Part shown: positions 49,314 to 50,083 of the stretch, in pieces
Layout of the letters: the number at the start of each line of letters is the position of its first letter
How positions within the stretch are numbered: the first letter of the stretch is position 1
Assembly: GCA_964600295.1 (NCBI GenBank)
Contig: CAZRIY010000002.1
Span: 26,133-90,132, forward strand
Source of the DNA: an uncultured Candidatus Saccharibacteria bacterium
GTDB lineage: Bacteria > Patescibacteriota > Saccharimonadia > CAZHVB01
Direction: 5' to 3'
DNA length: 64,000 bases
Notes under the pieces: model-generated
The model's input: the letters and a program-made list of their open reading frames with translations, nothing else
Database searches by the model: none
What the model was told of the DNA's origin: nothing
Position numbers and translations under genes: made by a program

Positions 49314-49370
49314 ACCGCTTCTGCTTGCAAATTAGTTCGACGTTCGACACACTTATCCCAAGAGGTTAAA

Positions 49371-49841
49371 TTGTCTGAAGCAGTAACAGAACCTGAACTT
49401 TCGGAGCTTGAAATCGACCAACAAATCGAGCGTTTCGCTTATGCAACACATCTGTCTCGTGAGCGTCATTCTGCCATTCAACAACTTAATGAAATTAATT
49501 CTCGATTAGAGGTTTATCAAGATGAAAAGTGGTTTGTGCCCGAGGGGCATGCAATTGTCGTCAGAAATGTTGCAGGCACACCCCTACCAGAACTTGAAAA
49601 GCTTGCCTTCGGTAGATGGCAGAAAGTAAGTTATTCAAGCTCCAATGAAAAATTGTTTTCTAGGGCTTTCATCGCCGATATGCTTTATTTTGATCAGGGT
49701 GAGGTCTATGCATGGGATTCAAAATACGGGCTTAGATGCAGGCTTAGCAGGGATGAATCTTATAATGTTGGCGTTTCCAGTATTAATGAGTTGCCTTCGA
49801 ATGCAATTAAAGCTCGCGAAGTAAAAGTTCCTCAATATTGA
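49371..49841 (+). CDS. hypothetical acidic protein (156 aa) inserted between fusA and tuf; TTG start
   Basis: AAGAGGT Shine-Dalgarno 4 nt before the TTG; AT-richer segment by eye. Confidence 0.5.
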   Translation: MSEAVTEPELSELEIDQQIERFAYATHLSRERHSAIQQLNEINSRLEVYQDEKWFVPEGHAIVVRNVAGTPLPELEKLAFGRWQKVSYSSSNEKLFSRAFIADMLYFDQGEVYAWDSKYGLRCRLSRDESYNVGVSSINELPSNAIKAREVKVPQY

Positions 49842-49976
49842 ATTCAAGGGCTACTCCTGGGGTTTACAAGTATAAGCTCCGCCTCATATAAAGGATTGGG
49901 CGAAGCCCAGACGGCTTCAAACATCTGAGAGGTTTAACATACGACAGAAGTTTATATCTGCTGTAGACGTCAGGGG

Positions 49977-50005
49977 TTTACTTGAGCAGAGGTGATGTTT
50001 ATAAT
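49977..50005 (+). promoter_or_regulatory. sigma70-like promoter upstream of tuf (TTTACT-N17-TATAAT)
   Basis: Consensus -10 at 50000-50005. A second TTTACA-N18-TATAAA lies at 49863-49892; both begin with GGGGTTTAC. Confidence 0.35.
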
Positions 50006-50083
50006 CATTGCTTAGCTTAAGGGGATAGCGTACTGCCGCTATGCCTTGGATATTAGATAACAGAGTAATCAAGAGGAGACTAA

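Follow-up and report, generated by a model that had tools for sequence, protein, structure and literature searches.

A probable orphan gene and a predicted tuf control region share an apparently variable fusA-tuf junction in a Saccharibacteria-like str operon

The rpsL-rpsG-fusA-tuf order is one of the most conserved gene arrangements of bacteria. In the stretch of DNA analyzed here (64,000 nt in full, referred to below as the window), fusA and tuf lie 770 nt apart, and the locus raises the question of what occupies this space. An earlier note had described an insert in the str operon, made up of an open reading frame (ORF) for 156 amino acids (aa) with a TTG start (ORF156) and a single structured leader of 240 nt in front of tuf. 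We confirmed that the rpsL-rpsG-fusA-tuf arrangement is interrupted by an additional ORF and a sizeable piece of non-coding DNA. The insert is not, however, peculiar to this genome: the fusA-tuf gap exceeds 300 nt in 22 of 31 Saccharibacteria-like loci, and its contents are nearly always different. As the junction is expanded in relatives and filled there with unrelated ORFs, we regard ORF156 as one instance of a clade-wide pattern and not as a one-off insert. The region fits a known type: a probable lineage-specific orphan ORF occupies a variable slot and is followed by the tuf promoter and 5′ untranslated region (5′ UTR). The explanation that combines a variable slot, ORF156 as a gene and a control region of tuf is the best one overall, and we hold the three parts jointly with reasonable, though not high, confidence.

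On the forward strand, the slot is flanked upstream by fusA (47205-49313; elongation factor EF-G, 702 aa; Pfam GTP_EFTU, EFG_III, EFG_IV, EFG_C), which ends with a TAA stop at 49311-49313, and downstream by tuf (50084-51265; EF-Tu, 393 aa; Pfam GTP_EFTU, D2, D3). Between them lie a 57-nt spacer (49314-49370), ORF156 (49371-49841) and a non-coding part of 242 nt. The EF-Tu of the window is 79-87% identical to that of a set of loci from Saccharibacteria and Saccharimonadales metagenome-assembled genomes (MAGs), with the highest values (up to 87%) for the Saccharibacteria MAG loci L056 and L097, and on this basis we placed the window in the Saccharibacteria-like clade. The best identity of its EF-G was 71% among GTDB species representatives and 70% in JGI metagenomes. 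By these comparisons, the window comes from a Saccharibacteria-like Patescibacteria lineage without a close sequenced relative in the scanned collections. The exact ORF156 sequence was found in one NCBI contig and one Logan contig (L001, SRR6868922).

The comparison with relatives covered 31 Saccharibacteria-like loci, defined by an EF-Tu at least 79% identical, and a contrast set of 73 loci from other bacteria. The median fusA-tuf gap was 527 nt (range 104-3318) in the former vs. 72 nt in the latter, and the contrast-set loci with an expanded gap were mostly Patescibacteria too. Other junctions of the cluster showed the same tendency, with medians of 378 vs. 49 nt for rpsG-fusA and 438 vs. 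about 0 nt for tuf-rpsJ; single gaps in the Saccharibacteria-like loci reached 5.7 kb. Where the fusA-tuf gap was longer than 300 nt, the largest ORF inside it pointed in the direction of the operon in 18/20 loci. The G+C content of the gap was below that of the flanking genes in 19/21 loci, by 4.3 points on average.

The contents of the slot are diverse. Among 36 forward-strand slot ORFs we found two recurrent families only, the remainder, including ORF156, being singletons. The first family comprises proteins of ~500-550 aa (L013 8529-10190, L081 3643-5223, L093 2919-4436; E down to 1e-180), and its L013 copy gave no match in Pfam. The second (~95 aa) is present in L146 and L049, and a 354-aa ORF of L061 resembles it in its N-terminal part. 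Few slot ORFs carry Pfam domains: one NUDIX, one pyridoxal phosphate enzyme encoded on the opposite strand, and weak DUF matches. Searches with ORF156 by tblastn and phmmer against all slot ORFs and all loci returned nothing, no DNA similarity to the 770-nt region was detected among 160 related loci, and the region has no paralogs or DNA repeats inside the window. In the comparison with relatives that the earlier note had proposed, no conserved ORF156 ortholog was found at the fusA-tuf position, nor did EF-G-guided scans of genomes and metagenomes reveal one. From these data, the stretch from fusA to the tuf promoter appears to be a variable slot throughout the clade, occupied by different lineage-specific genes in different lineages. 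In the literature searched, inserts in the str operon of Saccharibacteria or other Patescibacteria had not been described before.

The 242 nt that follow ORF156 carry two promoter-like units on the forward strand, which were found where the earlier note had placed them. P1 (49863-49892) reads TTTACA-18-TATAAA and the tuf-proximal P2 (49977-50005) TTTACT-17-TATAAT, each with GGGG just 5′; both are consensus matches, and P2 is supported also by its position in relatives. The note had given both units a common start; the shared 9-mer GGGGTTTAC is indeed there, yet it begins 4 nt upstream of each unit (49859-49867 and 49973-49981). P1 and P2 are the sole matches to TTTACW-N16-18-TAWAAW on both strands of the 64 kb, where 0.38 matches are expected; two or more were obtained in 8/100 shuffles. 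P2 agrees with TTGACA/TATAAT at 10/12 positions, and each unit agrees at 11/12 positions with the form typical of the clade, TTTACA/TATAAT. The 9-mer itself occurs in exactly two copies in the window, and for this reason its interpretation as a dispersed repeat or uptake sequence was rejected; with one mismatch allowed, 11 sites were found vs. 14 expected, without enrichment.

In 26 of the 31 relatives, exactly one TTTACA-17/18-TAnnnT unit was found at a distance of 66-155 nt, counted from its -10 hexamer to the tuf ATG, and the -10 hexamer of P2 ends 78 nt 5′ of the ATG. The relatives' promoter keeps to this range for gaps of 104 to 3318 nt. As the promoter stays near tuf at any gap size, the inserted genes always lie upstream of it. 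The relatives' -35 element is TTTACA instead of TTGACA, often with TTAACCC just before, and locus L093 has CAGGGGTTTAC in common with P2 of the window. By its position, P2 thus appears to be the counterpart of the single strong tuf promoter of the relatives. P1 with the hairpin that follows it repeats the promoter-then-hairpin layout of P2 114 nt upstream. A pairwise alignment of the two units showed no convincing similarity past the 9-mer, and as far as alignment goes a duplication is neither shown nor excluded. P1 with its hairpin is most likely a second, tandem tuf promoter of uncertain activity.

Both hairpins of the earlier note fold as described. Hairpin 1 (49902-49918, forward strand; GAAGCC-CAGAC-GGCTTC) has a 6-bp stem and a 5-nt loop (-9.0 kcal/mol, z = -2.2); it begins 9 nt past the P1 -10 hexamer and is followed by AAACATC. 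Hairpin 2 (50020-50047, core 50025-50042, forward strand) has 10 bp with one G.G mismatch and the loop UACUGC (-13.9 kcal/mol, z = -3.1), begins 15 nt past the TATAAT of P2 and is followed by TTGGATA. Both are just modestly better than shuffled sequence. No intrinsic terminator was found on the forward strand between 49313 and 50083, the two hairpins being without a U-tract, and on that account hairpin 1 was rejected as a terminator of the fusA-ORF156 transcript. The tuf ribosome-binding site AAGAGGAGA (50071-50079, forward strand) lies 4-5 nt before the ATG, and relatives have AAGGAG at the same place. A transcript started at P2 would have a 5′ UTR of ~72 nt (about 50012-50083), with hairpin 2 first and AAGAGGAGA last. 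The single structured leader of the earlier note was not upheld, as P2 and hairpin 2 take the positions that the tuf promoter and the 5′ UTR hairpin have in relatives at any gap size. The 242 nt are best described as a predicted tuf control region, mostly promoter DNA, that lies outside the insert. Past hairpin 1, at 49928-49945, AGAGGTTTAACATA resembles the ORF156 start region AGAGGTTAAATTG, with ATA in the start-codon position. No small ORF follows its Shine-Dalgarno-like GAGAGGT (49929-49935): there is no canonical start codon and no forward-strand ORF of at least 20 aa. The site could be what remains of an earlier gene start, or it could have arisen by chance.

In the relatives, the tuf promoter is followed by a conserved leader, which occurs once per locus and before tuf only. 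The distance from the -10 hexamer to the start of its hairpin is 12-15 nt, a placement that hairpin 2 of the window shares. The leader has a short form, GGTAACTCGYGTGAG, loop, CTCATGCAAA, and a long form in which the stems CGCG/CGCG and TTGC/GCAA surround a conserved internal loop, UGAGGGC/UAUGGAC. Examples are L052 8529-8568, L042 8478-8517, L120 4788-4827, L039 8117-8156, L056 about 9027-9085 and L038 9673-9735. Of the cells of the 7-bp stem in the short form, 97.6% are paired, and the changes are mostly one-sided and G-U-compatible; for this reason, and because the sequence is conserved, covariation was non-significant. A covariance model of the short form (R1), which describes a 7-bp stem GYGTGRG/CYCAYRC after GGTAAC upstream of tuf, had no matches in 438 kb of relatives other than sites in front of tuf, and no Rfam family was found for the leader. 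We propose the relatives' leader as a candidate undescribed cis-acting RNA. Hairpin 2 appears to be its positional equivalent, not a demonstrable member.

We also verified the statement of the earlier note that the stretch holds no tRNA. ARAGORN found none within 15 kb, the only one in the whole window being a tRNA-Leu at 33576-33662, and Rfam returned no tRNA in 49200-50200 at E ≤ 10. The Rfam covariance search suggested in that note, run over the same interval on both strands at the same threshold, gave two chance-level matches only (18.6 bits vs. a gathering score of 107, E = 1.5; 13 bits vs. 38, E = 6.9). Nothing in it explains the stretch, and it held no match that speaks against the note.

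Upstream of this control region, the coordinates of ORF156 and its start site were verified as the earlier note gave them: the ORF has a TTG start and a ribosome-binding site, AGAGGT (49361-49366), four bases 5′ of it. The description of the DNA as AT-rich held as well, with a G+C content of 41.6% for ORF156 and 43.4% for the 242-nt spacer, compared with 50.3% for fusA, 49.7% for tuf and 49.2% for the whole window. The uninterrupted frame comprises 175 codons, a length that no forward-strand run equaled in 5000 shuffles of the 770-nt gap and that was reached on either strand in 7/5000. Using a codon model trained on the 23 long ORFs of the window, we obtained a log-likelihood ratio per codon of +0.098 for the ORF's own frame and of -0.34 to -1.39 for the other five frames. 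The G+C content by codon position (0.55, 0.37, 0.33) follows the order GC1 > GC2 > GC3 of coding DNA, although the third-position value is far under the ~0.5 of neighboring genes. On balance ORF156 is rather likely to be a real, protein-coding gene. We observed also that ORF156 shares the reading frame of fusA, with the TAA and 19 sense codons between the two (49311-49373). As EF-G is already full length and such an agreement arises by accident in one case of three, the shared frame is probably a coincidence, and for the same reasons a fusA-ORF156 read-through fusion is not proposed.

The ORF156 product was described earlier as acidic, which is mildly so: its isoelectric point (pI) is 5.2, with 24 D+E vs. 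18 K+R, and that of the N-terminal 52 residues is 4.5. No hydrophobic segment was found in the protein. AlphaFold2, run without an alignment, predicted a helix at residues ~12-45 followed by beta strands. From the sequence, the product would be a cytoplasmic protein, soluble and mildly acidic, in which a long helix at the N-terminus precedes a C-terminal domain rich in beta strands.

As for its origin, ORF156 is a probable lineage-specific orphan gene. No relative was detectable among about 15 billion proteins. In 5.8 billion protein clusters, a word-indexed search retrieved nothing but the query, and an exhaustive phmmer search of 1.84 billion representatives returned ORF156 itself and one marginal match, P0004 (E = 2e-4). 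P0004 has 1217 aa and contains ten cadherin repeats. Residues ~89-146 of ORF156 align at 26-30% identity with the C-terminal half of every one of these repeats, each time across a gap of 6 residues, and the E value is the sum of many repeat matches that are each weak alone. The Pfam Cadherin model gave no match to ORF156, and Foldseek on the low-confidence structure model returned chains of immunoglobulin fold alone (E ≥ 0.08, template modeling score ≤ 0.23), none of them meaningful. The P0004 match is a hint of a beta-sandwich and nothing more. ORF156 matched no family in Pfam, NCBIfam or PHROGs and gave nothing against PDB sequences at E ≤ 10, and searches of plasmids, phage genomes and viral contigs were equally negative. 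The best PADLOC match, PbeC (E = 0.032), is non-significant and covers 56 residues of a 629-position model. ORF156 was most likely acquired or formed recently and is so far species-specific.

The model to which we commit is that ORF156 encodes a soluble accessory protein made by operon read-through. Its transcript would extend from the rpsL-rpsG-fusA unit and would be translated from the ORF's own AGAGGT/TTG. We infer read-through because none of the promoter-like matches before ORF156 is convincing and because fusA and ORF156 are not separated by a terminator. The 57-nt spacer, which contains the AGAGGT, has no terminator-like hairpin, and its promoter-like matches are weak (TCGACA-17-TAAATT, 9/12, which overlaps the start codon, and TTGCAA-17-CACACT, found by eye). 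P2 would start a separate tuf transcript near 50012, with a 5′ UTR that opens with hairpin 2, and P1 would act as a second tandem tuf promoter upstream of it. Stem-loops close to the 5′ end, as in the leaders of Escherichia coli ompA and Bacillus subtilis aprE and ermC, stabilize mRNA. By analogy, the most likely role of hairpin 2 would be protection against 5′-end-dependent decay, which it would slow for the very highly expressed tuf mRNA. Like these stabilizers, hairpin 2 is a stable stem-loop near the 5′ end, here a predicted one, of an mRNA that is highly expressed; in contrast to them, ~8 unpaired nt would precede the window's stem, which is above the optimum of the studied cases.

Several observations weigh against this explanation. 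The coding score of ORF156 is low and overlaps those of some antisense ORFs within real genes, and for this reason we regard coding as likely, not as proven. The AlphaFold2 model of the protein is poor, with a predicted local distance difference test score (pLDDT) of 45.5. ORF156 has no homolog, and its only other copy, on the Logan contig, shows 100% identity across 3918 nt, which leaves no variation in which purifying selection could be seen. In the control region, the promoter and hairpin matches are of consensus level only. P1 has an 18-nt spacer and TATAAA, and relatives normally have one tuf promoter; P1 may therefore be inactive. The predicted 5′ UTR of P2 (75 nt) is no more stable than its shuffles (z = -0.7), and a cmsearch of the whole window with R1, filters off, gave no match at 50000-50083 and only matches of E ≥ 1.7 elsewhere.

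The alternatives concern ORF156 on the one hand and the stretch after it on the other. ORF156 could be non-functional, either a decaying remnant or an open frame in expanded AT-rich intergenic DNA, the tuf promoter region alone being functional. That it has no homolog, that its G+C content resembles that of the adjacent non-coding DNA (43%) and not that of host genes, its low GC3, weak codon score, poor structure prediction and TTG start would all fit with such DNA. A stop-free run of this length is, however, not expected by chance on the operon strand, the ORF's own frame scores clearly best and shows the codon-position gradient of coding DNA, the AGAGGT is well spaced before the start, and the ORF is co-oriented and fills its slot as do the slot ORFs in 18/20 relatives. 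We consider a non-functional ORF156 unlikely, though by no means negligible. Its low G+C content relative to the host and its singleton occurrence could also be taken, together with the weak match to PbeC, as signs of cargo inserted horizontally by a mobile element, a phage or a defense island. Yet we found no integrase, transposase, flanking repeats or att-like sites around it, only short repeats of chance level; the viral, phage and plasmid searches and PHROGs were negative, and the PbeC match is below significance and confined to a small part of its model. An origin as such cargo is improbable. More speculative than our gene reading, and in our view rather unlikely though less so than mobile cargo, is the idea that the str/S10 junctions (rpsG-fusA, fusA-tuf, tuf-rpsJ) serve as gene nurseries or landing pads, where ORF156 was born de novo or captured from an unsampled source. 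The junctions would be constantly and strongly transcribed, and their conserved flanks could serve as homology arms for swaps of content. ORF156 would then have come from AT-rich intergenic DNA or from the unsampled source and would have been kept through high read-through expression. What suggests this view is the spacer-like composition of ORF156, its lack of a homolog in 15 billion proteins and the reading frame that it shares with fusA.

For the 242 nt, the alternative would be one long cis-regulatory leader RNA, for example a riboswitch, an attenuator or an EF-Tu sensor, which is transcribed from upstream and controls tuf. The whole stretch does fold better than most shuffles (z = -2.9, equaled by 1/200) and contains two local hairpins, and the P2 5′ UTR, in its minimum-free-energy fold, has its 5′ end paired to the ribosome-binding region. 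Structure-based autoregulation is moreover known for tufB in Salmonella, where Brandis et al. reportedly described it in 2016. Against a single regulatory RNA, the Rfam search gave no match on either strand, no sequence similarity was seen in the 160 related loci, and the stretch contains the two best sigma-70-type promoter matches of the window, P2 being in the same position as the promoter of the relatives. No hairpin with a U-tract is present, and the 5′ UTR is not unusually stable. The evidence against this alternative is stronger than its support, and we hold it to be very improbable. We thus retain the reading of the stretch as a tuf promoter region with a short 5′ UTR.

Comparison with described systems shows both likenesses and differences. 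In E. coli and Salmonella, secondary tufA promoters near the end of fusA are said to have been described by An et al. in 1982 and by Zengel and Lindahl in 1990. The window resembles the str operon of these species in gene order and in extra transcription of tuf, predicted here, from promoters just upstream and in addition to read-through. It differs in the 770 nt between fusA and tuf, in promoters that are truly intergenic and outside fusA, and in the unrelated ORF156 (fusA-tuf) and ORF136 (rpsG-fusA). The canonical str operon of E. coli and Salmonella is rpsL-rpsG-fusA-tufA (PMC6735719). In the thrU-tyrU-glyT-thrT-tufB operon the DNA 5′ of tuf is likewise non-coding and structured-looking, whereas the window has no detectable tRNA (PMC6735719). 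Translation operons of Proteobacteria are known to be separated by multigene insertions (PMC6735719). As with ORFan genes in variable slots, we see a lineage-specific gene of atypical composition between conserved flanks, with differing contents in relatives; unlike those slots and the inter-operon insertions, the slot of the window is inside the str operon and is used clade-wide (PMC6735719).

Closer to the window, the regions upstream of tuf (and rpsJ) of Nanosynbacter lyticus TM7x and Southlakia epibionticum drive heterologous genes autonomously (PMC10633639). That the tuf upstream regions of these two Saccharibacteria act as strong stand-alone promoters agrees with the TTTACA-17-TAnnnT unit before tuf in 26/31 related loci and with our prediction for P2. 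The window differs in having P1 too and GGGG, not CCC, before the -35 element. Relative to the tuf leader hairpin of its own relatives, hairpin 2 is alike in its start 12-15 nt after the -10 element and different in that its sequence is unrelated.

What makes the locus noteworthy is that the str/S10 cluster of Saccharibacteria is repeatedly broken by unrelated genes, mostly of unknown function, and that tuf keeps its promoter and leader. The complete lack of any ORF156 relative is also notable. A whole epibiotic clade would thus tolerate, and keep renewing, unrelated genes within the str arrangement. As tuf keeps a promoter of its own, insertions upstream would leave its expression intact. Saccharibacteria are ultra-small, epibiotic and naturally competent bacteria with tiny genomes of mostly unknown function, and in such genomes genes of this sort are of interest for host interaction. 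ORF156, if expressed, would be a candidate lineage-specific factor whose gene lies in very highly transcribed surroundings. TTTACA-17-TAnnnT and the leader hairpin are clade-level features that could be useful for the genetic tools that exist by now for Saccharibacteria.

Upstream of fusA lie rpoB (38352-41876), rpoC (41876-45712), rpsL (45716-46129) and rpsG (46129-46605). The rpsG-fusA junction holds the first insert of the cluster, ORF136 (46696-47106), an acidic ORF of 136 aa without family assignment, which gave no match in Pfam, NCBIfam, PHROG or PADLOC and forms a one-member cluster at 90% identity. After it, a terminator-like hairpin with a T-run was observed at 47169-47190, 14 nt before the fusA ATG, and fusA is without an obvious ribosome-binding site. 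Downstream, rpsJ (51274-51642) starts 8 nt past the tuf stop (window 51266-51345); in relatives the two genes are usually ~440 nt apart. The rpsJ of the window encodes an N-terminal extension of ~23 residues before the conserved S10 domain. From rplC, which starts at 55809, rpsJ is separated by ~4.1 kb (51643-55808) with four ORFs: ORF190 (51869-52441), ORF147 (52500-52943) and an ORF of 122 aa (53278-53646), all without a family match, and a 581-aa protein with a DUF3152 domain (53919-55664). A promoter-like TTGCTA-17-TATAAT is located at 52471-52499, directly before ORF147.

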